Positions 14,601 to 50,719 of a stretch of DNA of 64,000 nucleotides are shown one piece after another. Positions within the stretch are counted from its first letter, which is position 1. Every line of letters begins with the position of its first letter. Source of the DNA: Vermamoeba vermiformis (lineage: Eukaryota); NCBI GenBank assembly GCA_045837725.1, contig JBEWZL010000098.1:310001-374000 (forward strand), given 5' to 3'. The notes below the pieces were generated by a model. It did not search any database, had not been told where the DNA came from, and worked only from the letters and a program-made list of their open reading frames with translations. The translations under genes and the position numbers were made by a program.

Positions 14601-15675
14601 ATTCGGCTCAGCTATCTCCGTCAACGTCACCGATCAATACAACAACCTCGTGTCCGGTGCTCCTGTCACTTTCGTTGCACCTGCATCAGGTCCTTCAGCC
14701 ACCTTTAGCAGCAACACTACTGTCTTGTCCAACGCTCAAGGTGTCGCTACTTCATCGAGCTTCACTGCCACGACCACTGCTGGTTCATTTGTCGTCTCGG
14801 CCTCAGCACCTGGCACCGCTGCGGTCAACGTTCAGTTGTTCAACACACCCGCTTCTCCCTCGCAAGTTATTATCTCTGGCAAGCCGACCACATCTGCTAT
14901 CGTTGGCACCAAGTTCAGTGAACTCGCAGTTGTTGTCAAGGATCAATACGACAACACCGTCTCTGGTGTTGAAGTCACATTCAATGCCCCTGCCTCTGGT
15001 CCTAGTGGTGTGTTCAATCAAACTCAGTCGCGCCAAGCCACATCCGTGACTGGATCCAATGGTGTCGCTACTTCACCTGTCTTTGTTGCCAATACTGTCT
15101 CGGGCAGCTATTCAGTGAACGTTACTGTCGCAGGCTCTGCTGCCACTACTTCATTCGCTTTGACCAACGAGCCTGACGTCGCCTTTGCCGTGTCAATCAG
15201 CAGCGGTGACGCGCAATCCACCAGCACTGGCACACAGTTCGCACAACCGCTCAATGTGCTCGTCAAGGACAAGTACAACAACCCTGTCGCAGGTGTCTCG
15301 GTCGTGTTCGCCATTCAAGGCAACAGCAGCAGTGTCTTTGCAAACGGTCTGACCACATCCACCGTGCTCACCACGATCACTGGCCGTGCCTCGTCACCAC
15401 TCATCACTGCAGGCACTGAGACTGGTACTTTCACCGTATTTGCCAACGTCACTTCTGTAGGCTCGGTTACATTCTCGCTCTCGATTGTTGAGCCTCCTGT
15501 TGCTACCCCGGTCCAAGTCCCTGCCGCTGAAGAACCGAGTGCTCCTGTTGGATCCGCTCCTACTTCAGGCACAACTCCTGTTCGTGATGATGCGGGCACA
15601 GTGTCTTCATCCACGACTGTTGCTATTAACTCAGCAGTTGTTCTCTTGGCTACCGTCTTCTGCATCTGCTTCTAA
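8687..15675 (+). CDS. Giant secreted, GPI-type surface protein with about 20 bacterial Ig-like (Big-1/invasin-type) repeats
   Basis: Signal peptide MRVRLSTLLVLVAALSVFA; exons 8687-8751, 8803-9090, 9194-15675; repeating ~110-aa unit SGxxQ..V...F...L.V.V.DxxxNPV..V.VTF..P..G.....TD..G......AN..AG.Y.V; P/T/S linker and hydrophobic C-terminus. Confidence 0.85.
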
Positions 15676-21927: not shown

Positions 21928-22924
21928 CTACAACACGTATTTTTCTTCCTCTTTAATCGGTTTCTTCTTAGGCTTGCCATTGTACACTAGCGAGGTGATC
22001 TTGTCGAATGTAGCCAATAATAGTCCACCGCGTACGGATCTGATGCTCAGACTAGGAAATTTCCAAGTAGCAAATGACCGCAATTCTTCTTTAACAGCCT
22101 CTCGGTACGTAATATTAGCTGTCTTGTTGCCAGATGCCAAGAACAGTGGATGAGGCACTACTGTCGCTAAGAAAGTCGAGGCACATCCAGCCAAAAAATT
22201 CATGCTGAACCAAGATCTGTACTCTTCGTCTATAGCGTGGTGCTTAAGGGTATCGTATACTCCAAAATATATGCCTTTGTTAACAGCCACTGCAGGTGCG
22301 TTCCATCCATATTTGTAGTAAAATCCTCGCAGACCTTTCGTTTCCCAAACGGATTTGATCACTTCTCGCGGCGGCACTGGCATAAGTTGACGAGTTTTCT
22401 TGTTGATAACTTGTTGATTCGTTATAATATCTTCAGGATATAATATTGTGAACGAGATTAAGCCAGCAGCTGCGCCGGTAAGAAAATGAGTGCCGAGCAT
22501 TAGAGGCCAGATCTGATCGGGCAAGTTCAAACGGCTATTCATCGTTTCTTTCAAAGTGAAATCTAGTCCCTGAGTAATGGCATATCTGTAGCTCGATGGC
22601 AATGACGCTCGAAGCATCTGGCCACTTGCAAGCAAATCCGAGAGCACCGTCTTTCTGTCCAGTCTAAGTTGCTTTGCTTGGCGCTAAACATTTTTTTAAA
22701 TATTAGTATACCAATATATTATCTTATAGTACAATTTACAGAGTATTTGAGTGACTGTAAATAATTTTAAAAATATTTTTCGGATGTGACTTCAGTAAAC
22801 TTACAATTGCAATGTTGTTTACGGTCTCTAATGTCCCAAACACCACATTGTACGCAGCAGCTGGAATTGCAGCAGCCAAATAATCAATGGCTGGTGAGCG
22901 TGGCTTACTCTTCTTGTCTGACAT
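21928..22924 (-). CDS. Divergent mitochondrial carrier (SLC25) family protein (2 exons)
   Basis: FLTGAAAGLISFTILYPED; GLRGFY; IYFGVYDTLK; NFLAGCAST..VPHP; intron about 22804-22685. Confidence 0.75.
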
Positions 22925-27756: not shown

Positions 27757-28301
27757 GTCTGCATTAAATGGTATTATCATATATTTCGTATTACTCTATT
27801 TCCAACTTCTCCTTGTTTCCCGTTGTGTTGTTTTTTTTTTTTTTAAAAATTAAGGCCCAAATAAAAAAAAAAAAAATTTTTTTTTTGGTGATAAAATGCC
27901 AATATTATGTTGCTAAACGTAATGGACAAAATAATTTTTTGATGATTCGATTTATTGGTCAATAGAAAAATATTTTGGATTGCTAGCAACTTACCAAACA
28001 ATTATAATAATCCGAAATTAGTTGAATAGCGATGCAAATAATTTTTTTAATTTACTTGTGGCTTGAGGTAGGATGAGCGGTGATTCAATAGTCCCACTAC
28101 TAGTAACTATTTTAAGGATCACCACAACACCTACGTAATGTCGGTTTAGACGCTCAGCTCGGTGGTCAATAAGGCGTGGTCAAGAAGCAGTCTCACCAGC
28201 CAGAAACGAGATTTCGAAAGCTCAAAATGAATTTTTTTTTTTGTGCCATTCTTCTTTACCACCCACACAACGCAAACACAACAGCCACTTACAACAATGA
28301 C

Positions 28302-29429
28302 ATGTCTTCTATCGGTCAAGCAGTAGTGATCGACAACGGCTCTGACACGATTAAAGCAGGTTTTGCCGGCCACGACGCACCTCGTTTTGTCTTTCCAACC
28401 GTCGTTGGTCGTCCTCGCCAAGCTAATGGAAGCACTTTAATTAATTCAACTTGTACTTATGTTGGTGACGAAGCTCAAAGGAGGCGTAGTTTATTGGCTT
28501 TGAAATATCCCATAGAGAATAGAATAATTACGAACTGGGACGATATGGAGCAGCTCTGGTACCACACATTCTACAACGAGCTGCGAGTAGCACCTGAAGA
28601 ACGTCCTGTCTTGCTCGCTGAAGGGTTTTGGGCCCCCAAAGCCCGCAAAGAGAAGATGACGCAGATTATGTTCGAGACGTTCAACACACCCGCCCTGTGC
28701 ATGGCCCTACAACCTGTATTGGCTCTCTTCAACTCTGGTCGTACGACTGGTGTTGTGTTGGACTGTGGTGAAGGTGTTTCGGAGGTTAGTCTTATCTATG
28801 AAGGTTACAGTTTGCCTCATTCGGCCCTGCGTTCTCCCTTGGCCGGTCGTGATTTGACAGACTACTTGATGAAGATCTTGGTTGAGCGTGGCTACTCTTT
28901 CAGCACTACTGCCGAACATGAAATCGTTCGTGACATCAAGGAGAAGCTGTGTTACGTTGCCCCAGACTTTGAACAAGACATGGCCATTGCAGCTGCGTCC
29001 TCGCAATTAGAGCGGCACTACGCACTGCCTGACGGTCAAGTGATCACGCTCAACAACGAGCGATTACGCTGTGCTGAAGCGTTGTTCCAACCTACATTTA
29101 TTGGCAGTGAAACAACTGGTGTCCACGAGATCATCTACAACGCAATCATGAAGAGTGACGTGGATATCCGCCGAGAGGTCTACAGCAACATTGTATTGAC
29201 TGGCGGCACAACGATGTTCCCTGGTTTTGCTGAGCGATTACAAAGAGAGCTGACAGCACTTGCTCCGGTCACAATGCCAGTTAATGTTATTGCACCTCCT
29301 GAGCGACAATACTCGGCGTGGATTGGAGGCTCGATACTCGCTTCGTTGCCTGAGTTCCAAGACGAGTGGATCTTGAACGAAGAGTACGCCGAATTTGGTC
29401 CCTCGATCATTCACAAAAAGTGCTTTTAA
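28302..29429 (+). CDS. act: Divergent actin paralog 1 (intronless, 375 aa)
   Basis: [67 protein letters not shown]. Confidence 0.95.
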
Positions 29430-30344: not shown

Positions 30345-31481
30345 ATGGCGTGTGCTACCGTTGGTCAAGCGGTAGTGATCGACAACGGCTCTGACACGAT
30401 CAAAGCAGGCGTTGCAGGTCACGACGCACCTCGTTTTGTCTTTCCAACCGTCATTGGTCGTCCTCGCCACGCCAATCTGTTTGGTCACAGTGGAACTCCC
30501 ATACTAAAAGACGCTTATGTTGGTGACGATGCTCAAAGGAAGCGAGGCTTGTTGACTCTGAGATATCCTGTAGAAAGAGGTGTAATTACGAACTGGGACG
30601 ATATGGAGCAGCTCTGGTACCACACATTCTACAACGAGCTGCGAGTAGCACCTGAAGAACGTCCTGTCTTGCTCGCTGAAGGGTCTTGGCTAACCAACGC
30701 GAACCGAGACAAGATGACGCAGATTATGTTCGAGACATTCAGCACTCCCTTGTTGTTTATCGCTAATCAAGCCGTCCTCGCTCTCTACAACTCTGGTCGC
30801 ACCAGTGGTCTCGTGGTGGACTGCGGCCATGGCACGACACATGTCACTCCTGTTTACGATGGTTATCCTATACCTGGCGCGATTATCAGCACAGATTTGG
30901 CAGGTTACACTTTGACTGATCGCTTAATGCACAAATTGACTCTTCGCGGCTACAGTGAGAAATCTGTCAATCGTGAAGTCGTTCGTGACATCAAGGAGAA
31001 ACTGTGTTACGTTGCCACAGACTTTCAACAAGACATGGGAAACGCAGCTGCGTCCTCGCAATTAGAGCGGCACTACACACTGCCTGACGGTCAAGTGATC
31101 ACACTCAACAACGAGCGATTTCTCTGTGTAGAACCGTTGTTTCAGCCCACTCTCTTGGGTACTGAGACACGAGCATTACATGAGATTGCTTACAATTCTC
31201 TCATGAAGAGTGACGTGGATATTCGCCGAGAGCTCTACAACAACATAGTCGTGACTGGCGGCACAACGATGTTCCCTGGCTTTGCTGAACGATTACAAAG
31301 AGAACTGACAGCACTTGCTCCAGTCACCATGCGAGTCAATGTTATTGCACCTCCTGAGCGACAATACTCGGCGTGGATTGGAGGCTCGATACTCGCTTCG
31401 TTGCCTGAGTTCCAAGACCAGTGGCTCACTGCGACCGAGTATGCCGAGTTTGGCTCCAGCATACATAAAAAGTGCATGTAA
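30345..31481 (+). CDS. act: Divergent actin paralog 2 (intronless, 378 aa)
   Basis: Same actin signatures; tandem duplicate of 28302-29429; ends HKKCM*. Confidence 0.95.
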
Positions 31482-33882: not shown

Positions 33883-35074
33883 CTAATTCTTCTTAACAGA
33901 CTTGATCATATTATTTTCGATAAGCATCTCGGCGACCTTGTCGAGTTCAGGCCACACATCTCGGAACTTGATGCCTAACTGTGTTTGGATCTTACTCGTG
34001 TCGAAGTCAAATGTTCTGCCAATCATGTAATGCAAGAACTGATTCTGAGGGTCGTTTGATAGGCCCATAAAGAACCGCAGCATCTTCGTCATAATCTTGC
34101 CGCTCATGTCGCGTGTCGGGATCTTCGCCTTGGGATATTTTGGTCTGAAATGTTCCGCTAGATCTTTGACGGACACGGTGTGATTGGTGCAAATGTATCG
34201 CTGTCCCTTCGCTTCGGGCGTTTCTATAGCGAGCACGGGAGCGAGGGCCACATCGTTGACATCCACCAATGACAGGCCAAAGTTGATTAGGCCCGGGATC
34301 TTGCCGTCAAACAGCTGCGCGATAACTTCATTCGACGGATTTTCAAGACCTTGAACGCTTAATGGAGCGCCAGTGATACCACCAGGCTGTCAAAAATCAT
34401 TAGTTAGTATGGACTTGTTCTAATTGCGCTAAGGAGTGCTTACGAGAATGGTGACAAGTTCTGGACAGTTTGGATCTTGCGCGTGTTGTTCAACAAATTC
34501 CCACGCGGCACGTTCGGCCAAGACTTTGCTATAGTGATAGGCATTGCGTTTGAGCGAAGACAACGTGTTCCAATCTTCTTCGGTGTATCGTTTGACGGGC
34601 TGGTCAGTGATGGCATTGATCGATGAAGTAACCACGATGCGCGTCACGTGATGCTTCAGCGCAGCATTCATCGCACTCAGAGTGCCGTTAACAGCAGGAT
34701 CTACCATGTCACGCTAATGAGACAGTATTAGTAAGTTGTTTCATGAGCTCAAAGGATGAACCTACCTTTGGATCTTTGTACTTGAAAGTGAACGGGGAGG
34801 CATTATGTATGACGTATTTGCAGCCCTTGAATGCATCGTCAAAGCAATCTTCAACGTTCAAATCGGCCTCAACCAGCTCGAGTAATTTGTCTGCGCCCGG
34901 AAGTGCTTGGAGATGGTGCGTCTTCTTCGGATCTTTGGTCGATCGGACGGTGCCTCGCACGCGGTATCCACGCTCGAGAAGCTCTTTTACGATAAATGAT
35001 CCTAAAAATCCATTTGCACCAGTAACGCAGACCAAATCCTTCTCATCTGAAACTGAAATCTTTTCTCGGCTCAT
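33883..35074 (-). CDS. NAD(P)-dependent epimerase/dehydratase, dihydroflavonol-reductase/cinnamoyl-CoA-reductase/Gre2-like
   Basis: VCVTGANGFLGS; VRGTVRS; VIHNASP; VTSS; YHYSK (YxxxK); VDVNDVA; two introns. Confidence 0.9.
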
Positions 35075-35587
35075 TTGTGTCTTCGCTTGGTTGTAATATG
35101 TTGTGTTCGTAATGTTTGTAAATAATGACATCCTTGGCGGAGCTTTTTATGGCTAATAATTGTGCTCCGCTGCACCGCTCACGGAGAAACGGCCTTCCGA
35201 TCTCTTCGACACTTTTTTGGTATTGGACCGAACAAAAAAAATCTCTAGCGACATCACTACAATCAATTAACATCCACAATCGACAACCTCTAAGCATTCT
35301 TACTCCATGCTCTTCTAGATCGTATGGTAAAATATTAGTCCTACCGAATGTGAAGACGGTGCTTCATTCCCTATTTGGCTAATTCCCCGTAATCTGCGGA
35401 CGGTAAGAATTAAACGTTTTTTTTTTTTTAAAACTTCTACATACACTTCTCCTCCTTTACAATAATAAATGATGTTTTTTTTTTTATGTTGTCTCGTGCT
35501 GAACGCCAAAAGTTAATTTTGCACGCGTCGTATTTTAATTTAGTTTATTCGCGGATTTTATGATACAAAAATGCTCAAAATTATATA

Positions 35588-38500
35588 TTACATGATGTAC
35601 ATTGCCATGGCGATCAAATACAAAGCCCAAGACCAGCTCAAGTTGATCGCGGATGCAGTTTTCATTTCCTCGTTAGGTGTGGTTACAGGAGCCACACTCG
35701 GTGTAGTTACACCAGTCGTGTCTTGACGACTCAGATTGACGCTTGCTTCGATCTGCAGAGCTTGATCGTAGCCGTCGGGGTTTTCGTCTTGCAGGGCAAA
35801 GCGTTTGGCAGCTGGCTGTGTCTGAGTATTGACGTACTTGTAGCGCACTGAGAGCGTGCCTTGAGCGGCGAAAGGAGCAACGCCGTCAACGGGGATGGGA
35901 AGGTCTGAGGGCACTATGAAGGACAAGCTGACCCAGTTCGTGCCACGACGCTCGAAGCGGGTCACAGTTGAAGTGCCTCGAGCGGTCAAAGCGCCGGCAG
36001 TGACGAGGGTGTAGGGACCAAAAGTGAAGTCAGTGAAGTTTGCGGAGCTCAGTTCAGCAGCGTTATCAGTGACAGTGACATTGGCCAAGAAATAGACGCG
36101 TTGACCAGGCAAAAAGACGTTCTTTTTGATCGTGAGAGCTTCGTCTTCGTAAGGCTCCATGTAGGCAGTCAGACCGACATCGAGTGACACTTGCGAGCAA
36201 ATGTCTTCGGACACGATGTTCATGGCGATTTGAGCCTGGTTGGTCGTGGAGTCGAGCGGGCAGTTACCTTTGAGCGCTGGGTTACAAACCACGGTGAAGT
36301 TCACTTTGTACTGGCCATCGAGTTTGCAAGCTGTGTTGGGATTGATCACAAACTTGTACTTTTGCGTGCAAGCAGTGCCTATAATGCGTTGTTAAAGTCT
36401 ATTCGTAAATGTGGGATTTAGCTGCTTACCATTGACAGTACCGCAGTTTCGACCGCCGAGGAATTCGCTGACAGTCGCAGTAAGAGGGAACGGGGTTTGA
36501 ATCACAACAGGCAGATCAAGCATGAACGGCCATTGGAGCGAGGTCGTCAGCTCGATCACACCGTTCTGAACTGTGACTTGATAGGCTTGAAATGTGACTG
36601 CGGCGAGCAAGTTGACTGAAGAGTACACATCGATTGTGGTTGTGACGGTAGTACGTTTAGGGAATCTCACTTGCATTCTGAATACGTGCCTCGTGATTCT
36701 GATTTTTGTCGTTAGAAATGACACCGAGAAGCAGTTGTAATGCCGCACTTACCGATTCAAAACGTAGCCTCTAAAATCGCCCATAAAATCGTTGTGTTCA
36801 ACGGTCAAGAAGGTCTCGTAGATGTACCAATCAGGATCGTCAATCAGAGTGAAGCCGCATCTATTGCCGATGGACCAAGGCAACGAGCTTGACCACAAAT
36901 CCTCGCAGTTGTTAGTGAAGTCCTTGTTCCAGAAGAAGCCAGGATAGTCGCACATGGCATTGCCGCCTCTGTTGTTCATCCAGTAGATCACTGTGTGCGT
37001 GCGGTTGTAGACCAAAGGACCGCGGATACGAAGCTCCATCGCACTGCAGCTGAATCCGGAAGTTGGATCGAGGACGGGGATGTTGTCAGTGGCCAACAAC
37101 TGGACAGAGTTGAATCTGTTGTTGCACGAGCTGTCGATCTTAACGTTGCAGCTGTTGCCCATCCAGCCAGAAGCGCAGGCACAGAAGTCCTTAGGACCGT
37201 CCACTGAGTAGCGAACAACACACTTGCCGTTGACGCACGTGTTAGGGCTGCAAGTAGAAGCGTAGCGAAGGATCAGTTGAGGAGGATGTTCGCCTTCCTT
37301 TGAGTCGATCAAAGTCAAGTGCGTGATGTTGGTGGTCGAAGGAACAGTGCCAACATAAGGACATTGTCTGATCACCAAGTTCTCAATGGCTTGAGTGCTC
37401 ATGGAGAGATCTTGCAAGCTCAGCGGGATTTCAATGAACTCGTTTTGGAGATTAGTCGTGATGTCCAAGCGACCAAGCAGGACGTTGGCAGTCATGCCAG
37501 AAAGAGTGCTCTGTAATAAAAAGTCAATAAGACACTCGACAACAACATCGTTTCAGTGTGACATACGTAGGTCGCAGTCTTTTCGTCCCAAGCAGTGCTG
37601 TACAAGTTATCGCGGTAGACACGCAAGCACGTAGTTTGACCGTAGGGCAAGACCAATTGACGAACGTACAACTGCAAGCTAACCTCTGTTGCGAGTTTGT
37701 TAGTACTACAATCAATGTATGTATGTATGTGCATACCGCTCAAGTAGCCGAAGCTTTCTTGGATACAGTTCGAGTCCCATTGCATTACACCAAAGGCACA
37801 TCCACCAGGGTGAGTGCGAATGTATTGGTCGTTGGTGCGAGACTGCGATTGGTTCCAGCAGCCCATAACACCAATATCTTCACCAGGGATGCGGTACAAG
37901 ACACCAATAGTGTTGGTCGGCGAAGCAATGTACAGACGTTCAACGGACGAGGCGTTGAAAGGTGACAGTGGAGTAGAGCGCAAGTCACCAGGCATTGTGC
38001 TGTAAGTGGCTGTGACTTGACCCACACTGATCAAGGGCGTGTTGACATCGGCAATAACAAGAGCCTTGAAGCTAATGACAACGTCGGCAACGGCGAGCAC
38101 TGAGTAGTACGCTGTGATGGCAGTGGGGGTAATGCTGACGTTTGTAGGATTGCCAGTAATGTTGACGCTGTTCAAATCCAACGTGAAAGAGTTGACGATA
38201 GGATTGATGATCGTGACATCGTAGGCCAAGGACTCCATGTTCGTGTACTTGACCTTGATTGCCGCTGTGATGTTTTGACCAGGAGACACAACCAATGTGT
38301 TAACGTCACGAGAGACAGCCAATGCGGGCTCAATGACGTGAGCCAATGTCAAACTTTCGGCGTCATTGCCATCAGCCCACGCGACACTGCACAGCAGAAG
38401 TTAATTCCAGCCAATAAAACAGCGCAAGCCAACTTACACAGCAGTAGCAGCACGTTCAGCACCAGAACCGACAGACGGGAGATCCAGGACAATGACAGGG

Positions 38501-41500
38501 AAGTAAATGTCCAAGTAGTCCGCAACGTCGTTTCGCATGTCAGTGTTGACCACGTTGGTGAAGTTCACTTTGAATGAATCACCGTGCGTTGACACGTTGA
38601 CGGGGCTAGAGAAGTAAGCAATCGTCTGAGTGTTAGTGCTAGTAATGGTCGGCAAGGCAACGAGTGAAAGACCCTTGGCAAGTGTGACTTCGAGTTGAAG
38701 CGTGCCAATGAACACTAATCAGGCGTTAGTAAAAAATAGAAATAGAAATGCGCAATATGTAACTCTTACTCTCAGGCAGTTTGACGCGAACGAGAACGGT
38801 GGTTTGGTTGCCAATAGTGAGCATCTGAGGAGCAGCAATGGGAGTCGTGCTACCAATAGCAGACACTAATTGCATCGAGATTTCAGGGTTCTTGCGAGGA
38901 ACAGTGATGCTAGTGTTACTGCTTAAGACGTTGCCCATAGTAGAGTTGCTGCATTGACCATATTGCAAGCGCAAGGTCTCAGTCAAAGTGACATTGGCCG
39001 AGTAGTTCCAGATGTACTCGGTGTAACGAAGAGAGAATGTTCCACCAGTCAATTCAAGTGCAGGGACGGCAATTGAGAAGCTATCTTGCGAGTAGGTGAT
39101 CGTGGAAGAAGCGTTGGTGTAAACGCTGTTGTTGAAGAAGCGCAACAGCGAGCTAGACAAACTGCTGATGGCCAAGTTGTAAGCAGGGGCCTTGGACGAG
39201 GCACTGTGTGCGATAGTAGCCAAGAACTTGACTTTGTCGCCGTTATCGAACTGTGTAAGGTACGTTAGCATTGGGCGCGATAATTTGACCTATGAACTTA
39301 CTCCACGAGCAACAGCAGAGGCGTTGACTGTTGGCATCAAGAAACCTTCGTTGGTGCTAGGTCCATCGGAGATTTCGTCATCCGCAGTGGTGTAGTCGTA
39401 CAAGTTCCAAATGTTCAAAGTAATTGCAAGACGAGGCTCGACAATTTCGAAGAACAAGTTCAACGAGCTGCTAGTGGCGGTGTTGTAAGTGAATGTAGCC
39501 GTGTTCTGCAGAGCGTTGCCAGTCTCCGAGGCAGATGACAGAACAATGCCAGTCACGTAAATCACGATATTATCGTTACTGTTCGCGACGTTGTTCGGTG
39601 CATTGGCAATGTCACCAAATGTCACCGTGAGGCGATCAGACACGACGTCGTTGTTGCTATCACTGTAAGCGATATTGACACCACCAGAAGGAGTCAATGA
39701 GGTACCGAGTGATTGAATCACTGCGTTTTGGATTTGCACGAAGGGCACGGGCATAGTGACGACTATTTGAGGAGAGACAGTGCGGCCTTCAGGGAAAATC
39801 AACGTGACTTGAAGTGTGACACTTTCACAGATAGCCAAGTCAACATAGGAAGCTAAAACGTTGTTAGAATTGAACATTAAGAATAAGTCGATGTAACTTA
39901 CGATTGAAGAACTGGCTTCCCGTTGAAGGATTCGAAGTTGACAGGACTGAGAAAGTGAAAGAGGGCGCGAGTACTGGGATAGTCACGTTGGCTCCAGTAA
40001 CTGTGTAAGACTTGGCCGCAGTCGTGACCTTGTTGCTATAGTAGGTGCCTGTAGCTCCAGGTAAAACAAACGAGGTACCCGTTTGGATGTTCGTGGCAAC
40101 TTTGACGGTGTAGGTCACAGTGAGAGTTGAGCCGAGGGTGAAGGTGGCAGTGGAGATGGAGATCACACCATTGCTCACAGATACAGTGCCAGTGCCAGCA
40201 GTGATGGTAGGATTACCTTGCAACGTTACTGTTGAAGGAACAGTGTCGGTGATGGAAATGACATAAGCAGGGGCTTTGCTAGAGGCGGTAGGATTGGTCA
40301 ACGACAAAGTAACAACAATGCTGTCGTCTGCGTCAACAGGGCCGGTGTTCGAAGTCGTCTTAGTCAACGCCAGGGTCGGCTCGACGAACTCGATGTTGAA
40401 GGTAGCACTCCTAGTGGCGGAGGTAGCAAGATACACGATCGTGGCAATAGATCCCTTCAAGGCAGCTAAACAAGACTGTTAGCACCACCAATTTTGCTTC
40501 TTTAATTGAGTTACGTACCACTACCGACATTAGATCTGTTGGGAGCAACACGAGAAGAAATGAGCACGGTTATGATATCGCTGTTGTTGGCAACGTTATC
40601 CGGTGTGTTGGTCACTGTGCCGAGGTTAAAAGTGCAAACTCCGGCAGAGATTGTAGCGGTTGCGTTCATCGGGGCACTAGTGATGAAAAGATCAGTTTAA
40701 CATAATCGGATAGGGACGTGACTTACGCATAGCTCAAGCTGGAGCCAATGAAGGCAATAGTACAGCTGAACATTTCCAAATAAGAGCCGTCTGTTTGATT
40801 GACTTGGAACTTGAGCTGAGTGTTGGGAGTAGTTCCCTCAGTGAATCGATAAGAAGCCAAAAAGTTGAGGTCTTCACCAAGTGCCAAATCGTCAACAGTT
40901 GTTGAGTATTGAGTCCTAGCAGTTTCAGTCAAGCTGGTGAAGGGAAGTGAGATGGAAACGCTCGGAGTAGCCGTTGTGATCCTAACGTTGCCAGCCAATG
41001 AGTAGGACTTGGCGGTCGCCACTTCATCAGCCGAGTAGTAGATGCCAGACACAGCGTTTGTGATCTGAGTATTGGGAGCGATGGTGTTGGAGAGCAGCAC
41101 TTTGTATAAGATCACAATCGGTGCTTCGGTGACATCGTAGACAGGCACAGTAAGACCGATTGATGTTTGACCAGTGCTGTTGCCAGAGGTAAGCGTGAAC
41201 TTGTTCGATGCAATGCCCGTGACCGTAGTTTGACCGGCAATCAACGTGTATTCAGCGGGCAAGAAATTGGTGATGACCATGCCGTAGCTGGGCGAGTTGG
41301 TTGTCGCTGTAGGGGAGATAGTGATGGTGAAAGTCAATGTATCACCACCGTCACCGCTGGTCGGGGTTCCGGTAATGGTCAGGGTGTTCGCAGGCTCCAC
41401 AATGTCCGTCAAGAAGTTGACTACTAGTTGTCTGTTGGTGTGGTAGTTCAATGTTCCTTTGAGGATTACGCCGGCATTTCTCGTGTCAGTGTTCATTACG

Positions 41501-44500
41501 ATACCAGTGACGTACACCAAGATCCTATCACCAGCATTCTGAACGTTGTCGAAGTTGTTGGTCACGTCTCCGAAAGTAATGACAACTCTGTCGCTGATGC
41601 TGTCAGCATTGGTATCGCTAACAACGACAGTGCTGCTGGCAGTTGTGATGCTGCTGCCGAGAGTGACAGTGCTGTTGAGCACTCTCATCTTGGTGCCAGT
41701 TGCAGTTGGGAAGTTGACAGTGAATGTCGAAGCAGGAGTGACTCCTTCGGGGAAGGTAATGGTGTAAAGGGCACGGAAGTACTCGCCAGGAGCCAAGTCG
41801 TCAACGTTAGCTGTGCTGAGAGCCTGCAGAGTCAAAGCAAGGGAAGAGTAGTCCAAAGAACCAACGAGGCTAGGGTTGGTAGTGGTGACGCTAATAAGGT
41901 CCGTGGAGATGTCTGGATTGGCGAAGTCAATTCCACCGTTTATCGAAGAGTAGCGCAAGAGTTGACCGAGTCCAGAGGAGTAAGTGGTAAAATCTTGGAC
42001 GGTGCTCTTCAACTGAGCGTCGTAAGTGATGACAATAATGTTTGCACCAACTGTTCCAGCGGCAGGACCCATCGAGGGAGTGATGGAAAGACCGCTAGAG
42101 AACAAATCACCGGTAAAAGCCAAGCTTTGACCGAGGCCATCGTAAACAGCGATGTTTCTGTTGGTAGGCAGCACGTAATCAGAGCCAATATTATCGCTCA
42201 CAATCACGTTGTAGGCTTGACTTCCACCAGTATTTTCTGAACAAGGATTAGCATCCAGGTAATTAATCCACAAGAGAATTAATCCGTTCCGTACCTAACA
42301 CGAGAGCAATGGTAACCAAATCACCAGCGTCAGCACCAGAAACAGTTGTGGGCAAGGTCGAGGTATCACTGGAGGTGAAGTTGCCAGTCCATCGCTTTCC
42401 GGCAGTGCCAGGAGCCGTGAAGGTCTTGCTCGGGGTAGTGTTCAATATCGCAGCGGAGTTTGACACAGCGACAACCTTCTTCGCGATAGTAACGCCTAGT
42501 CCAAGGTTAGACATGCCTTTATCGCATGAGCGTGGTACTTACTAGGCATAGCAAGTTTGTAAGCGAGCCAATCGACTTGAATACCGACTTGATCTTCGGA
42601 GGACTTGGCCAAAGTAGCAATTTGAAGGTCATTAGGGAACTTGTTGTCAGTAATTTGAAGCGTGCACATAATATCAACCATTGTTTGAGTGTTGTTGGGA
42701 TCAGCTTTGGAACCAAAGTCGAAGTAAATGTTGTTTTGGACAGTGGAAGTTGTAACGGTAGGAGTCACGGGCAGTGTGTGCAAGGGACCTAAACCGCAAG
42801 AGTTGATTGCAGGGATTCCCGAGGCACTAAAGTGGTTGTCAGTACTCGGTAGCTATACGTATTGTTGTGCTTACCTCCAGCCCATTGAAGCAGGGACAAC
42901 AAACACGGGGTGAGGAGGATAGAGCTCGAAGTTCAAGCTATTGAAGTCGGTCGTGGGTGTCGCGTAAGTGACTCTCAAAGTCACCACTTGGGAAGGGAAG
43001 AGAGTCAAAGTCTGCGTGCTGAGTACAGCTCCATCAATAGCGTAGGTCGTGAGGTCTATGATACCGTTGATCATTTTGATGGACGACTGCGATGACACTG
43101 TGCCGTTGAATCCAACACTTGTGTCGCTGAAGTTACAGCTGTACTGGAACAAGTTGATAACAGACGACGAGCTGAGCTTAGTGCCGTGGACGACTGAAGT
43201 GCCATCAAGGTACTTGTCCTTGACTTTACCGCTGTATTGGAACTGCAACGAGACTGGGCCACGTAAGCGCGTGTTAGGGTGAACCAACCTGGACACGTTC
43301 AACGACGATTGCAACGTGTTGGTGACCGTGTCCCAGATCATTGCTAGAAGATTAATTAATCAGGATATAACGTATATATTCTCCACGTACTGTTGTCAGT
43401 GAGGACTGTGTTGAGGTTCGAGGCATTGACCGCGATCTGGAAATTGCTTACGTTGACTAGCAAACCATCGTTGAGTGTTTCATAGAGGCGCAATTGATTG
43501 AAGCAGTAGTTGGGATCGGAAATCAAGAAGTTGATGGTCTTCAGAAAGGAGTCTCCAGGAGTGTTTCCCACCGCATTAACATCCACACTGCGCGATATCG
43601 CGGAAGTGAGCGTCAACGGAACTGCGGTAATTGAACCACTTTGTCCAGGGAGGTATTGCTGTAACACGAATAAGACGTAAGTTCATGAACAACTTTTGAG
43701 GGAGGTGAAAACTTACGCGAGTGCAATTGCACGACGGTTCGAAGAAGTTGTAGTTGAGATCAAACGACCAATTGTAGATGTAAGGAGACCACGCATTAGT
43801 TCCATAGCCGCACTTAACGGTGTCGTTGTAATCAATGTAGAAACTGAACGTAATGTAGACGTTATCGAGACTGCTCAGACTATTGTTCAACTTCAACGTG
43901 ATGCTGTCCTTGTAGTTTTGAGAGACGTTAAAGGAACCGCTGGATAGAGTGAGATTGCCAACAGTAGCGCTCTCAATCTTGTTGAGACGAATACCACAAG
44001 GAATGTCTATGGGGAATTTAGGATTAGCGCGTGCTCGTGCAGTACGAAGTGTCACTTACAAATGATGAGAGTTCCGTTGAGAATCTGAAGAGCAGATTTG
44101 AAGGTAACCATGTGCGTGCAATTGTAGATGTATTGAGGACCGATCATGAAATCTTTGCTACTGAACGTGATCTGAGTTTTGAATTCACCAACAGAAACAG
44201 TCGAGTTAACCCAAGCACCAATGATCGAAGGGTTGGTATCGACAGGCTTGTCACCGTAAGTAAATCCAGCGCGAGTTTTCATTAAGAGCGAGGAGAGAGT
44301 AATGTTCCTGTCGGAAGTTGCTGAGATGTCGAGGCTGATCGTGGGCTGAGTAGCAGCGAAGGACAAGAATGGCAGACGGTAGGTGTAGAATACTTCATTA
44401 GCAGCGAGAGCCGTGGAGATTTTTGCTCCTTTAAAAATAGATGAGCTAATCCGCGGAAGAATAACACGAGTGATCTTTACCTGAAGTGTCTTGGGCGTAG

Positions 44501-44817
44501 GGATGAATGAAGCTAGTGACGCCTTTAAAGACCTGTGGGGAGATCGTCATGTCCAAAAATGTTGCCAAGTTTATATTGACTGCTTGGCGATTAGAGGTTG
44601 TGTCAAAAGGCACGATCACATCCACGTAGGGGCCGTAGCCGAGAACATCGCCTCCATTACGAAATTCGATCTTAAAATTCAAGCTATCTCCAAATATAAT
44701 TGAGCCAGAGAGTGAATTGAAATTTGAGACTGGAGCCGGTGCCGCGTACACCGATCGCAGAACACAAATCCAAAATAATATAAATAAATGGCTTTTTAGC
44801 CTGGCATGCGTTAGCAT
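35588..44817 (-). CDS. Giant secreted GPI-type surface protein: DUF11/isopeptide-like Ig repeats, DNRLRE-like domain, EGF, unnamed C-terminal module
   Basis: Signal peptide (HLFILFWICVLRSVYA); repeated DLAxGE..TFPEG..P and GD...T.T.....PAY...I.D units; LQLYV..W.E.TATY..S.EG..PPQL; EGF CSPNTCVNGKC..CACASGWMGNSC; hydrophobic tail; many short introns. Confidence 0.75.
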
Positions 44818-45495
44818 GAGTTGTGGTGATATGTACAAAAAATTGATTGGAAGGAGAAATAAATTTGGCAATTTGGTGGTTAACTAACCCACGAAGCGGA
44901 AAAATTAAGCTGGGCCGTGGAGATATTAAGAAAAGTTGCCTTTTAAGGCGAAATTGATTACAGGTTGCCAAAGGAGTACGCACCCGGTTGAACTGAAACA
45001 TAAGCAGATTCTCCATAGCCCCGCTATTTGTGTCTTGCACGGGTGCCACCATCCTGGATGGGCAGGGACTAGTTGAGTTGGCTCAAATTCAAATTCATTA
45101 TGAATTATTTTCTTCGGTATCTAAAAATAGTGCGACAACGGAACGGAATTCTGGTCGAATTACTATGAAGGGTATAGGTAAGGGTCTCCTCATCAGATTA
45201 AAACCAGCGCTTTAAAAAATTATTAATAATTATCCTTACCAGCGACTTAAATATATTAGATTAATGATATTATAATGAAATAAATTGGTGGATTAGCCTT
45301 GGAATTTATTTACCTCGAAAGTCTCCTTGTTGCCGCAACATTCTAATCCTTGAATCGCGGGCTATTTATGTACAAGACGCGCATAGTATCCTATCAGCGG
45401 TGTTACTATGCTCTTGCGTGTCAGGTGTAAATAATAAAGTGTTTTTGTGCGGGTATTATTTTTTGTTCGATCAACGGTCCACAACAGCTCCTTCG

Positions 45496-48400
45496 ATGTC
45501 AAACATTCATGATACCGAACTAGACCCTTGGGGAGACAGTAGTACTTATAATAAAGTTCAGTGTTGATGGAAGTTAACAAGTTTTACCAGCGCCACTCGA
45601 AGATGTTCCTTTGTCTGCCCGAGCTCGACCACTGAGAAGGGAGCAAAAAAGAAGAATTATTATTGCTGTAATTACATCCGTATTAATAGCTTCGGTTGCC
45701 TTCGTAAGTAATTTGCAATTTTCCAGATTTCAGTAAATTGCTTCAAGCTCTAATGAGCTCGCATTTGTTGATCGTCGTCGGCAATAATATTCATAATTTA
45801 ATTTACAATTAAGGCTGTGATCGCTTTTTCAATTGCAGCAAAACGAGATGACGACCGACCTTCCGAGCCGTCAGAAATTAAACCTGCTTGGGCCGGTATC
45901 GTAGCCGAAGTAAACAGAAATATGGACAGGTACGCATAATCATAATAATAGATGCACATATTTATCTGTTCTTAAGATCTGTAGATCCGTGTGATAACTT
46001 TTATCAATACTCTTGTGGTGGTTGGTTGAAAAATACCCAATTACCCGGCGATCGAGCATCTTATGGCAGATTTACTGAGCTTGCCGAGCTCAACACTAAT
46101 GTGAGTAAAGGAGCTTTAAATTTGGAATTATTCGGAAATTTACTGACCAATCGTTCAGCGCCTCAAATCTATTCTCGAGGGTAACTGGCCGGTAAGGATT
46201 ACAATACTTAAGATTATATTTTGATTTTTGTAAAATTAATTGAATACAGATGCTCGGAAGATTTTATCAAAATTGCATGGATGAAAACCAGATCGAAACT
46301 CTTGGCTTGGCTCCTTTGTCACCTCTTCTCGACCTCATCAACAGCTACAAAAATAGTTCTGCGACATTGGAAACAGTGCTGAGCGTCCTTCACTCTGTTG
46401 GTGTTCGGTCACTTTTCAACGTGTACACCAACATTGACACGTACAACCCGAGCCACGTCTTCTTGAGCGTGGATCAGGGAGGCATGACCTTGCCTTCTAA
46501 GGACTATTACTACGCGGATAGATATGCTTCAGTGCGGTAAGGGTCGCAGATAATCACAACTGGCAGTTTTAACCCCAATGTTAGACAAGTCTTTGCAGCG
46601 CACATTCGACGCATGTTGCAGCTCCTCAACGATCCTTCTATTCCAATTGACGAGGCAGTATGTTTTAATAGCCTTAAACACAATAGAGATACTCATAATC
46701 GTCACAGGCTAACGCGATCTACCAACTCGAAATGGATCTTGCTTACGGCGCTTTGACCCGTACTGAGCGACGCGGTGCGTTGGTGACTTACCATCCAATG
46801 TCGCTTGCTAGCTTGAAGGCGATGGTGCCCAACTTCAACTGGGACAATTACTTCAGTAAGTGGCTTGTGAGCCATCAATCATCACGGCTACCAAACTAAA
46901 GTCTTGCAGGTGGCTTAAACATCAGCACATCTAACCTCGATGTCATCAATGTGGCCGTCCCTGTATTTTTCGGAAACGTTTCAAAAGTGTTAACAGCCGT
47001 ACGTATTAGAGAGAGACACGTGTCGAGTATAGGATCTGACCTCAGTGCATAGACTTCTGCCGATAAAATCAGCTGGTACTTGACTTTCCGTTTACTCTCC
47101 GCTCATGGCTCGTACCTCACTGCAGCCGTGCGCAACGAGAAGTTCACGTTGAGCCAAGCCCTGACCGGTGTGACTGAACAACCTCCTCGCTGGAAGTTCT
47201 GCTCGTCAGCTGCAGACAGCTACTTGGGTGAGCTCGTTGGTCGTTACTTCGTATTGCAGTACTTCTCCGTAAGTAACATCAGGTTATTATACTAAGCGTA
47301 CCAATGATAATTTGACTTAGCCCGATGCACTCAACAAATCTCGCTCGATGATTGGACGCATTGAAGAAGCTTTTGCGGATAATATTCGCAGCTTAGAGTG
47401 GATGGATGAACAGACTAAGACTTATGCTCTGAAGAAGCTGAATGCTATCTGTAAGTGGTCGATCCAAAAAATTATTTTTTTTAACAAAAAATGTAGTTAA
47501 CAAGATTGGGCACCCCGATAAGTGGACGGATTATTCACCAATGGAATTGAAGTCCAACCAATTCTACCAGAACGTTTTTGCAGGTAATTTAAGTTTGATG
47601 CCAAATAAGGGAATTGATGAAACTGACTTCACCCACAGCTTCTAAATTTGGCTTCGATCTTGATATGTCGGCCCTCGGCAAACCAGCAGACAAATCCATG
47701 TGGTCGATGCTACCCCAAATAGTCAATGCTTATTACAGTCCACAATGGAACGAGATTGGGTTCCCAGCCGGCATTCTCCAGCCTCCATTCTTCAGCGACA
47801 AATTCCCTACTGTTATGAATTTTGGTGGTATTGGCGTAAGAAAAGAAATGCAGTTTCATTCGTAGTTACACATTTGCTAATATTCTTCAGACGGTTATTG
47901 GACACGAGTTAACCCACGGATTCGATGATCAAGGAAGACGCTATGATAGGTACAATAGCTTATATATTTTTATAACTGAGCTAACTTAATTCATAGCACC
48001 GGTAATTTCACTGATTGGTGGACCGCTAATGTCGCTGAAAAGTTCGAGCAAAAAGCGAAATGTGTAAGCGATCTGTACAGCTCATACGAAGTCGAACCTG
48101 GATTGCATGTTAATGGTGATCTTACTTTGGGCGAGAATATCGCTGATATGGTTCGTAAATTGAATTTATGACGTCACGCAACGTTGACTGATCCATGGAT
48201 CTTAGGGAGGATTGAAAGAGGCGTTCAAGGCTTGGAAGAGCTTGAAGAAGGCCGATGATAATGTCGATGAGGAAGATGATGATATTAAGGACTCCTTTGG
48301 CTTGAAAGCTGAGCAGCTGTTCTTCGTTTCCTACGCGCAGATCTGGTGCAACAAACAGACTCAGGTACTGGCTATAATATTTTTGGGTTGCCTTACTTAT

Positions 48401-48665
48401 GGTTGAATACAGGAATATACGAGATTTCTAGTCACCACTGATCCTCATAGCCCAGCTGCCTACGTAAGTAATTCTTAGAATTATTCCGTTAATGTCGGAT
48501 TGGCTCCCTAAACAGACGGATTTCATAAATCTAAATTATGATATAAACTAATCCACTTTATAGCGCGTACTTGGCCCACTCTCGAATAGCGAGGACTTCG
48601 CTAAAGCTTTTGAGTGCAAATCCGGATCACGAATGAACCCTCAGAACAAATGCACTGTGTGGTAA
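45496..48665 (+). CDS. M13 (neprilysin/endothelin-converting enzyme) zinc metallopeptidase, type II membrane
   Basis: TM anchor; [68 protein letters not shown]. Confidence 0.95.
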
Positions 48666-48737
48666 AGTGATTCTTGTAATAAATAGTATGATTCGCAAGG
48701 TTTATGTTACAGGATATATATAATACACTAGTGGTGG

Positions 48738-50498
48738 TTACAAAATTACCAACAGCACAGCCGCGGTCACGTAGAACCACTGACCCGCTGTTAGTAGCCA
48801 CCCAGAATTGACTTGGCCTATTGGTTCGGGAAGAAGAGGGTTGATTGGGGTGTCGCCGTTGAATGATGCGATGTTAACGGGAGTCGCGAACATCTTTGTT
48901 TGAGCTCCTGACAGTTCGGCTGCTTGCATGATGAAGCGCGCACGTCGTTGTTGAGCGCCGAACGTGTTGGACACAGCCCACGTGACTTCAACTTCAGCAA
49001 AGAATTGGAACTCTTCAATGCTGTCTGGTGAGACTGTGAACAACACTTCTTCTGCAGAGCCCGTGTGCGTGGTCAGTTCGAATGTCGCGGTTGTTTGTCC
49101 AGGTGGATCCAGCTTGAATTTGTTTTCTCTTGCAAGCACGGTGGGTACTCCTCCGATGAGGAGTGATTTGGAGGTGAGGGTGTTGGTGGGTTTATAATAA
49201 ATGTTGGTGATATTGGTGGTAATAATCGCTGCTTTTGTTGATCCAACTGTGACCAAGAAGTACATGACTTGACCGTCTAAAAATGCGGACTTGGGTTGTA
49301 AATGATTTACGTCTTGAAAGATTTGCAATGTGCCCGACAAATCAATATCGAACACTAGAGCGTTGCAAAAGTCTTCTGATTTGATGATCGCATTGATGGT
49401 TGCGTTGTTGGTGGTGTTGTCAAGTGGACAAGGATCTGACCCTCGACACGCAAGCCTGAAGACCATTTGATAGTCTCCCGTCAATTGACAAGCTCCATTA
49501 GGAATAATATCCATGGTGACCTTCTGTGAGCACACGGTACCTGAACTTGAGCTGCATCCGTTGTCTGCAACACTGGAATTAGCCAACATGTTTCCTGGAG
49601 CCTAAAAAACATCATTAAGGACACGTTATAATACTATTACATGAATTAAACTTACTTTGGTGCTAACCACTTGCATGAGCTTGTAGGGCCATTGCAAAGA
49701 GGTCGAAAGCTCGATCCGACCATGGAACGTTAGAGCATCGACCGCTTGATAGGTAATGGCCGCTAGTAAATTAACGGAACTCGATACTTCAATGGCTGAA
49801 TAAATCTGATTTATGAAATGGAGTTAGAATCCAGCTTGGAGTTAAGAAATCCGAATTTATCCGCGTACCGTCAAGGACTTTGGAAACCTTAGTTGAATGC
49901 GCATGGTACTCTCCGTAAGCCTAGTAATAGGCGTATCTCTTAGTTCTCCAATTTTGTCTCTTTGTCCGATTGAAGCAGCGATCGTCAAATAAATGTACTC
50001 CGCATCTTCGGTCCTTGTCCATCCACATTGGCTGAGCTCAGCTAATGTGACTTCAAAAATAAACATATCGTTGCATGTGCTAACATCTTTTTTCCAATAA
50101 GGTCCTGGGTAGCTGCATATTGAATTATCAATATTCGTGTCTTCTGAAACAAATCTAATTGATGCATTTAATCTATCCGTGACGAGTGGTGACTGTATAA
50201 CGACTCGTAAAATATTATTTTGTATAAAACTGTCTTTTTCTACTAATTGTGGAATATAATCTGTTGATAATGTTGAGGTTGGGTTGAATTCGCAGTCGAT
50301 GGGGACTCGTTCAGTGCAATTTTGAAAGTTGTATCCTCCACTTGAATATCCAGAAAAACAACTGCATATATCGTCTACTCTTTCGCCAGAAACAGTTCCA
50401 TCAGGCGCTATACAAGAGCTGTTGGCAGATACGCCGATCAGCGCACTCCCCATCAATAGCAAAAATATATATACGACAAACTGTATTGTCTGTGCCAT
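48738..50498 (-). CDS. Secreted GPI-type protein: EGF-like domain plus the C-terminal module shared with 35588-44817
   Basis: Signal peptide; CSCFSGYS..NC; CSYPGPYWKKD; SVNLLAAITYQ; STSLQWPY; CPLDNTTN..SEDFC; hydrophobic C-terminus; three exons. Confidence 0.8.
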
Positions 50499-50719
50499 AA
50501 AACTATTAAAATTCCCAACTACTATCGTATTCGCATCTCTCTCTGTTGTGGTCGTGTGAGATAAGAATCAAAAAATTAACTAAATGCGGAATTTTAGGCA
50601 CCGAATGCAAAAAAACTCTCCGAAGGAGGATTAATTATACTATTACGGAAGTAATACACGCAAAGCTATAAATACACGTAATTAGAGGCGGCACACTCCG
50701 ACGATGTTCCGCTAGACTT

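Follow-up and report, generated by a model that had tools for sequence, protein, structure and literature searches.

We analysed a 64,000-nucleotide stretch of Vermamoeba vermiformis DNA (contig JBEWZL010000098.1, positions 310,001 to 374,000; hereafter the window), which is eukaryotic in character with short GT-AG introns. We focused on two of its minus-strand genes, gene A and gene B, which share a co-linear C-terminal module of about 520 amino acids. The last domain of this module is predicted to fold like the C-terminal domain (ZP-C) of animal zona pellucida (ZP) proteins and carries a candidate protease site ahead of its last strand.

Organisation and transcription of genes A and B

The predicted product of gene A (35588..44817, minus strand) is a very large, secreted surface protein, about 2766 amino acids long and encoded in 17 exons, with its parts in the order signal peptide, immunoglobulin-like (Ig-like)/DUF11-like repeats, epidermal growth factor (EGF) domain, shared module and glycosylphosphatidylinositol (GPI)-like tail. 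The splice model was built greedily on GT-AG introns and contains no internal stops; it is doubtful at the first intron (148 nt) and at the sixth donor (GTATTC). Repeats, EGF and module stand in the same order within a single protein in P0057, a 1677-aa homolog fragment. Gene B (48738..50498, minus strand) is the short member, encoding 547 aa in three exons (50498-49869, 49805-49656, and 49601-48741 plus the stop codon), and its coding sequence of 1641 nt is free of internal stops. Both gene B junctions are reproduced by P0157, a full-length gene B ortholog of 548 aa that is 84-90% identical.

Splicing of both genes was visible in contigs from run X7, a run of a close relative labelled 'RNA?'. 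The spliced contigs skipped exactly 49806-49868 and approximately 49601-49654, confirming both introns of gene B, and in gene A they skipped 36699-36752, approximately 37509-37566, and 39251-39301 (3 junctions). All skipped stretches end in CT..AC, which is GT..AG read on the minus strand. The X7 contigs show introns of both genes, and therefore gene A and gene B are transcribed and spliced in this close relative. Summed X7 contig depth was about 26-29 for gene B and about 1.3-5.6 for gene A, a poor measure of expression. Raw RNA reads from X21 and X23, which carry the same species label, were uninformative (20 and 28 matched, mostly partial). A pseudogene or a mis-assembly was considered and rejected in view of uninterrupted reading frames, conservation of the orthologs and the presence of spliced RNA.

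Genes A and B are separated by an M13 (neprilysin-type) metallopeptidase gene on the opposite, plus strand (about 45880-48600). It is expressed: the X7 contigs show it spliced at nine GT..AG joints and cover it at a depth of 20-43. No role in processing of the module is implied by its position. Separately, some X1 DNA contigs carry small indels at window positions 42257, 42283, 45354-45356, 47863 and 50537-50597, with a depth of 412 of 642 at 42257 and 42283 (inside a gene A intron). These indels are probably allelic or strain variation.

The shared module in the two genes

To compare the modules, the exon translations of gene A and gene B were aligned by BLASTP. The last exons matched at 90.1 bits (E 8e-26, 54/147 identical), and the exons carrying the EGF and the first domain matched at 62.0 bits (E 2e-16, 44/172 identical). 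When P0157 was searched against the window by tblastn, exactly two loci were returned, 50498-48741 (gene B) and 37261-35945 (gene A), the latter at E 1.2e-54 with 31% identity over 448 columns. Because of the E-values of the exon pairs and of the tblastn match, we take the similarity of the two modules to be real, co-linear and far above chance.

In gene A (all features on the minus strand), the module begins with an EGF-like region at 37142..37252, where Pfam EGF matches are sub-threshold (P0004 residues 86-133). It is followed by D1 (36640..37135), which contains conserved cysteines and the motif CDYPGFFWNKD, spans the intron 36699-36752 and aligns with D1 of gene B, and by D2 (36200..36625), a Cys-rich, Ig-like domain with the motifs SVNLLAAVTFQ, TSLQWPF and CPLDSTTN that spans the intron 36379-36429. 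The boundaries of gene A D1 and D2 are approximate, those of D1 being set by homology to the P0157 model. D3, predicted to be ZP-C-like, takes in the F-G loop as well as strand G and occupies 35729..36187; it was placed by homology to gene B D3, with its fold taken from the P0157 model. Within it lie the basic site AAKR, followed by F (35801..35812; kept as VAKRF in the ortholog P0031), and the post-site strand QALQIEASVNLS (35729..35764), which resembles the external hydrophobic patch (EHP) of ZP proteins. A hydrophobic, GPI-signal-like tail (35591..35638) closes the protein.

The corresponding parts of gene B, also on the minus strand, are an EGF-like region at 50292..50414, whose Cys columns 31/47/49/63 are kept in 88-98% of covering rows, and a beta-rich D1 at 49869..50300 (model strands 93-208, pLDDT >90; pLDDT, predicted local distance difference test) with conserved Cys 130, 144 and 160 and weak leads to ZP-N. 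D2, a seven-strand Ig-like domain at 49371..49787 with near-invariant Cys 278, 286, 300, 314 and 320, runs across the intron 49602-49655. The predicted ZP-C-like D3, with its F-G loop and strand G, lies at 48855..49361, and contains the basic site RRAR, followed by F (48936..48947), which reads LRHARF in the ortholog, where R-x-x-R is still satisfied. The EHP-like post-site strand KMFATPVNIASF, strand G of D3, lies at 48861..48896 (model strand 500-507, pLDDT about 52), and the GPI-signal-like hydrophobic tail at 48741..48800.

The comparison bore out much of what the earlier note had reported for this locus. It had described about 500 aa of co-linear similarity, which the BLASTP and tblastn E-values confirm, and had quoted motif pairs that are all found in the translations of both genes. 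The two genes, placed about 4 kb apart in that note, are separated by a measured 3.9 kb from the gene A start (44817) to the gene B stop (48738). The basic sites, the hydrophobic strands after them and the GPI-like tails were all located at the coordinates given above, and 71/95 homologs have a tail of the same kind. The EGF domain said to precede each module was supported in part: it exceeds the Pfam cut-off in homologs, while the window's own exon stays below threshold.

A recent tandem duplication was rejected as the origin of the pair, since identity between the two modules is only 26-37% and separate orthologs exist for each at 84-89% identity. In a FastTree tree of 98 rows, P0006 and P0007 fell together with A, B and their orthologs in a six-member clade on long branches (support 87), and because of this clade we regard A and B as old paralogs and not as a recent tandem copy. 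Orthologs of both genes are tabulated on contigs with the same two lengths (133,470 and 497,656), which is suggestive only; two metagenome scans for synteny in relatives did not find the locus.

Size and architecture of the module family

When 1.84 billion representative sequences were searched exhaustively with phmmer, 253 clusters were found at E≤1e-3, of which 72 reached E≤1e-10 and 3 reached E≤1e-30. Word-indexed homolog searches returned close orthologs and nothing further. Neither the window exon proteins nor the homologs matched a Pfam family that covers the module as such. The EGF domain did exceed the Pfam cut-offs in P0056 (EGF_Teneurin, 28.0 vs 24.3 bits) and P0046 (EGF_2, 24.2 vs 22.1 bits). 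Many family members are about 500 aa long and consist of a signal peptide, EGF, module and tail; others place the module behind large cargo, namely Big_9/DUF11, SdrD_B, PA14/TSP_3 or TIG domains. All of the homolog clusters that were looked up (30/30) came from environmental collections or unnamed records, and diatom labels predominate in the three ESM Atlas clusters that came out nearest (0.93-0.91), which we treat as a lead only. Internal repetition among the three domains was not detected by hhalign (D1 vs D2, D1 vs D3 and D2 vs D3, probability ≤0.6%).

Protein-language-model neighbours gave two further leads, and we use them as leads only. For the C-terminal exon, 10/10 named clusters were Zona_pellucida/ZP-C families (0.87-0.81), and for residues 60-265 the neighbours were ZP-N families (0.79-0.76).

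D3 is predicted to have a ZP-C-like fold

The module was folded with AlphaFold2 as P0157, the gene B ortholog, using a 100-sequence alignment. The model reached a mean pLDDT of 82.9 and a predicted template modelling score of 0.49, with 301/548 residues at ≥90. It comprised an EGF domain (30-65), D1 (strands 93-208), D2 (seven strands, 226-335) and D3 (strands 351-470), with an extra D3 strand at 500-507 after a low-confidence loop (477-502). Across most D3 strands, pLDDT was about 85-95. Conserved cysteines fall in D1 (130, 144 and 160, with 71 in P0157) and in D2 and its border (278, 286, 300, 314, 320 and 341).

Foldseek against the PDB placed uromodulin at rank 2 (E 5e-6) and returned several uromodulin and ZPD filaments and the ZP2 ZP-C (TM-score 0.59); these matches stand among generic multi-Ig proteins. 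When the 988 Foldseek chains were re-examined, rows 1-13 were ZP-module structures. A structure search of 48,161 chains gave ZP-module structures at ranks 1-5: ZP2 ZP-C (Z 12.4, root-mean-square deviation 3.1 Å, 126 aligned residues, 17% identity), uromodulin precursor (Z 12.1), betaglycan ZP-C (Z 11.8, 138 aligned), ZPD (Z 11.1) and uromodulin filament (Z 10.1). The first unrelated chain, myelin P0 (V-set Ig), followed at rank 6 (Z 9.7). The margin of ZP-C over V-set Ig was modest and consistent (1.4-2.7 Z), and ZP-module structures aligned over 126-138 residues vs about 100-112 for Ig V domains. Whole-module alignments to uromodulin, ZPD and ZP3/ZP1 began at model residue 67-90, and Z was not raised. 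Between D1 and D3 the model contains the full seven-strand domain D2, plus short low-confidence joints, e.g. 213-217. These results indicate that D3 has a predicted ZP-C-like fold.

A dibasic site and a following strand are conserved among homologs

In the homologs, strand F of D3 follows the consensus Φ-x-Φ-x-A-x-Φ-x-V-x-Y/F, and K/R-K/R stands 3-9 residues later. A dibasic pair occurred no more than 20 residues past strand F in 66/95 homologs, compared with 4.1% of control windows (upstream 20-residue windows of the same proteins). The site columns were K/R in 69%, 70% and 51%, and the next column was hydrophobic in 92%. About 20 residues further on, in the downstream strand, columns 504 and 506 were hydrophobic in 84% and 92%. 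In the D3 model, the basic site, a predicted protease site, sits between strands F and G.

Structural alignments with ZP-C precursors that are uncleaved (ZP2 ZP-C, betaglycan ZP-C and the uromodulin crystal form) reached model residue 507-511, and those to cleaved filament subunits (uromodulin, ZPD and ZP1/ZP3) stopped at 482-486, which is the basic site. The chain ranges of ZP2 5bup and betaglycan extend beyond the region aligned in the filament forms, and these constructs presumably keep the EHP. By this comparison, strand G of the model occupies the position of the ZP EHP.

After strand G, the proteins continue with a Ser/Thr-rich linker and a hydrophobic end. According to a simple sequence heuristic, 71 of the 95 homolog C-termini were GPI-signal-like and 12 combined a transmembrane (TM) helix with a tail on the cytoplasmic side; the remaining 12 had neither or were truncated or unclear, so that by this heuristic the precursors would be membrane-anchored through GPI or TM. 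The dibasic site was present in 54/71 GPI-like, 3/12 TM-tailed and 9/12 none/unclear homologs. The split between GPI-tailed proteins with the site and TM-tailed proteins without it recalls that between cleaved, polymerising ZP proteins and uncleaved TM receptors, betaglycan and endoglin among them, the TM group here being small. The TM-tailed homologs are P0038, P0041, P0059, P0064, P0065, P0068, P0070, P0104, P0105, P0116, P0143 and P0026; this subfamily, 9/12 of which lack the dibasic site, may be a receptor-type branch.

These analyses took up some of the checks that the earlier note had proposed. It had suggested an AlphaFold and Foldseek comparison with uromodulin, and for the P0157 model ZP-module structures lead the search of 48,161 chains, with uromodulin at Foldseek rank 2. 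It had also asked whether the post-site strand inserts into the last Ig domain, and in the model it forms strand G of D3. Loss of the basic site among homologs had been named as a ground for rejecting the idea, and the site is conserved at 66/95 against 4.1% in controls.

A putative release and assembly device

Our favoured reading, to which we give about an even chance, is that the module is a ZP-like, protease-armed release and assembly device. On this reading both genes encode secreted, C-terminally membrane-tethered surface glycoproteins with the module order EGF, D1 (a beta domain with cysteines, possibly ZP-N-like), D2 (Cys-rich Ig-like) and D3 (ZP-C-like). In D3, strands F and G are parted by a loop of about 30 residues with the conserved K/R-R site, followed by a hydrophobic residue. 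By analogy with uromodulin and the egg-coat ZP proteins, a lipid anchor would hold the precursor on the membrane. A kexin/furin-type protease would cut at the dibasic K/R-R, and strand G, on the membrane-bound propeptide, would dissociate from D3. The ectodomain would be freed from its anchor and a strand-shaped groove would open in D3. Another subunit could then fill the groove, and the proteins would pass into a cell-surface coat and probably assemble there. Gene A would bring about 2200 aa of Ig-like repeats to that coat, and gene B would be approximately a bare module. Cleavage, release, polymerisation and co-assembly of A and B are steps that we infer; the linkage of the two genes and their shared X7 expression are compatible with co-assembly and prove nothing. 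A stronger form of the proposal holds that this is a true ZP-type polymerisation module in a protist family far from animals, in which D1 is ZP-N-like, D2 is an Ig domain inserted behind it, and the ZP-C part is equipped with cleavage site, EHP and GPI anchor. Genes A and B would then co-assemble, once cut at the dibasic site, into coat filaments with B as the core and A displaying the repeats. We consider this form rather unlikely.

Uromodulin provides the closest description of such a device. According to PMC7737619, its parts run in the order EGF IV, ZP module, consensus cleavage site, EHP-bearing propeptide and GPI anchor, which is the order found in the module genes, and release of the EHP strand permits polymerisation. 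In the structural alignments, cleaved uromodulin ends where the model has its basic site. Unlike uromodulin, the module has no detectable sequence similarity to ZP proteins and no ZP-C cysteines, and it has an extra Ig-like domain where uromodulin has a 24-residue strand-exchange linker. Its site is dibasic K/R-R, probably of kexin/furin type, whereas uromodulin is cut by hepsin. Uromodulin is the archetype of polymerising ZP-module proteins, and polymerisation of the module is putative. The egg-coat ZP proteins (ZP2 ZP-C, 5bup; ZP3, 3nk3/3nk4; ZP1/ZP3 filament, 8rki/8bqu; ZPD, 28yj) likewise have a basic site followed by an EHP strand and a membrane-anchored precursor; they differ in being animal proteins with the canonical eight-Cys pattern, whereas the module family is protist, lacks that pattern and stays below threshold for PF00100 and PF23344. 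The ZP-like domains of the choanoflagellate Salpingoeca rosetta, distant and incomplete ZP relatives in a unicellular eukaryote as described in PMC13361971, are comparable in that respect. That organism belongs to the Holozoa, the animal lineage, and the comparison is by description only; the language-model clusters nearest to the module family carry diatom labels, again as a lead only.

Several results weigh against the ZP-like reading. PF00100 (Zona_pellucida) matched 0/75 homologs even at E≤10 and 0/4 window exon proteins. PF23344 (ZP-N) matched 3/100 members, all sub-threshold (12.7-14.8 bits vs 24.7, best E 0.037); these three weak matches all map to D1 (residues 114-195), which is possibly ZP-N-like on such weak leads. 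A family profile of the whole module retrieved only EGF domains from the PDB (reelin, 1.6e-4, and selectin), with a ZPD/uromodulin-named chain at a non-significant E of 0.16 over the EGF and early D1, and a profile of D2-D3 alone matched no ZP chains there. Sequence methods thus give no link from the module to ZP proteins. No cysteine is conserved inside D3 (349-509), so that the ZP-C disulfide signature is absent, and the eight-cysteine ZP pattern (four in ZP-N and four in ZP-C) is not present. Polymerising ZP modules have a 22-26-residue interdomain linker, which is strand-exchanging in uromodulin, and polymerisation is reported to be absent from ZP proteins whose linkers are atypical (PMC7737619); the module has D2 in place of such a linker. 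The dibasic site is missing in 29/95 homologs. As for the model, strand G has a pLDDT of only about 52 and the preceding loop falls below 50. The folded sequence is the ortholog P0157 and not the window's own spliced protein, and a single-sequence model of the window's last exon was useless (pLDDT 40.4). The ZP-like reading of the earlier note is therefore partly supported: the ZP-C-like D3, the basic site, strand G and the tail speak for it, and the lack of a Pfam ZP match, of ZP-C cysteines and of the short linker speaks against it.

In an alternative explanation, the module is an ordinary GPI-anchored Ig-like adhesin stalk whose three beta domains only keep the cargo at a distance from the membrane, its ZP-C likeness is that of a generic V-type Ig, its site serves shedding or maturation or is unused, and no polymerisation occurs. 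Sequence similarity to ZP was not found, D3 lacks the ZP-C cysteines, the flexible linker of ZP type is absent from the model, and the varied cargo of the homologs (Big_9/DUF11, SdrD_B, PA14/TSP_3 and TIG) is adhesin-like. However, ZP-module structures take ranks 1-5 of 48,161 chains with more residues aligned, and V-set Ig domains such as nanobodies and myelin P0 align over fewer residues and have neither a long F-G loop with a protease site nor a detachable strand G. A protease site within the domain, lying between F and G with a conserved strand behind it, would be unexpected for a stalk and is the arrangement specific to ZP-C, and the site tracks the anchor type (54/71 GPI-like vs 3/12 TM-tailed). 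We judge the stalk explanation somewhat unlikely. Another explanation is an artefact of prediction or alignment, with K/R-R as a compositional accident of a disordered linker. In its favour, the loop and strand G have low confidence, MAFFT may line up hydrophobic residues in loose regions, and there is one good model only. Such an artefact appears very improbable to us, as it would have to coexist with a D3 pLDDT of about 85-95 over most strands, the agreement of two independent structure-search routes, site enrichment of 69% vs 4.1% and language-model neighbours that, independently of the fold, indicate the same family.

The module could also be a non-polymerising, ZP-like co-receptor or ligand-binding module of the betaglycan (TGFBR3) and endoglin type, remaining on the membrane to bind a ligand that is soluble or on a cell surface, with the dibasic site used to regulate shedding of the ectodomain only. 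The atypical join of its two halves is reminiscent of the interdomain linkers of betaglycan and endoglin (PMC7737619), and the TM-tailed subfamily with cytoplasmic tails (12/95), mostly without the dibasic site (9/12), would suit such a role. Genes A and B, in contrast, combine GPI-like tails with the dibasic site, a processing logic that betaglycan and endoglin are not known to have, and the large adhesin-type cargo, 2200 aa of repeats, fits a matrix or adhesin role better. We hold the co-receptor explanation to be distinctly unlikely.

Other genes in the window

A further giant open reading frame (ORF) of 2190 aa lies at 9103-15675 (plus strand), uninterrupted in intron-rich surroundings, with repeats of the bacterial Ig-like group 1 (Big_1; E 2.6e-58, 5 stretches) and a hydrophobic tail at its end. 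Its G+C content is about 0.51 vs about 0.42 around it, its GC skew is strongly negative, and it does not carry the shared module. Conceivably this ORF encodes a third giant surface protein, which may have a bacterial source. Two intronless actin paralogs stand in tandem at 28299-29426 and 30345-31478 (plus strand; Pfam Actin, E 3e-129 and 4e-124), and their identity to named actins in the homolog search was no higher than about 60-72%. A fragment of a mitochondrial carrier gene was found at 21931-22683 (minus strand; Mito_carr, E 2e-15), and an ORF at 34709-35146 (minus strand), just downstream of gene A, has the look of an NAD-dependent epimerase/reductase, by eye only.

Significance

A 2026 review holds that the canonical ZP module arose in animals; it acknowledges ZP-like domains in a choanoflagellate, in incomplete form only, and reports that fungi and plants have none (PMC13361971). 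Our literature search for ZP modules in diatoms, stramenopiles and other protists found no report; it covered subscription journals thinly and is not proof of absence. What appears to be new here is the combination of a predicted ZP-C fold with ZP activation wiring, namely a protease site, a last strand that can detach and a lipid anchor, in an unannotated protist family whose cysteine pattern and number of domains differ. Should the module turn out to be nothing more than an Ig stalk that carries a shedding site, it would still be a new, widespread protist surface module deserving a family model. If the ZP-like reading is true, it would make the origin of the ZP assembly mechanism testable outside animals, offer a simpler system for studies of strand-exchange polymerisation, and provide a working model for many 'hypothetical' protist surface proteins. 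If it is a true ZP-type polymerisation module, the ZP mechanism would be older than animals, or would reflect an ancient transfer or a striking convergence.

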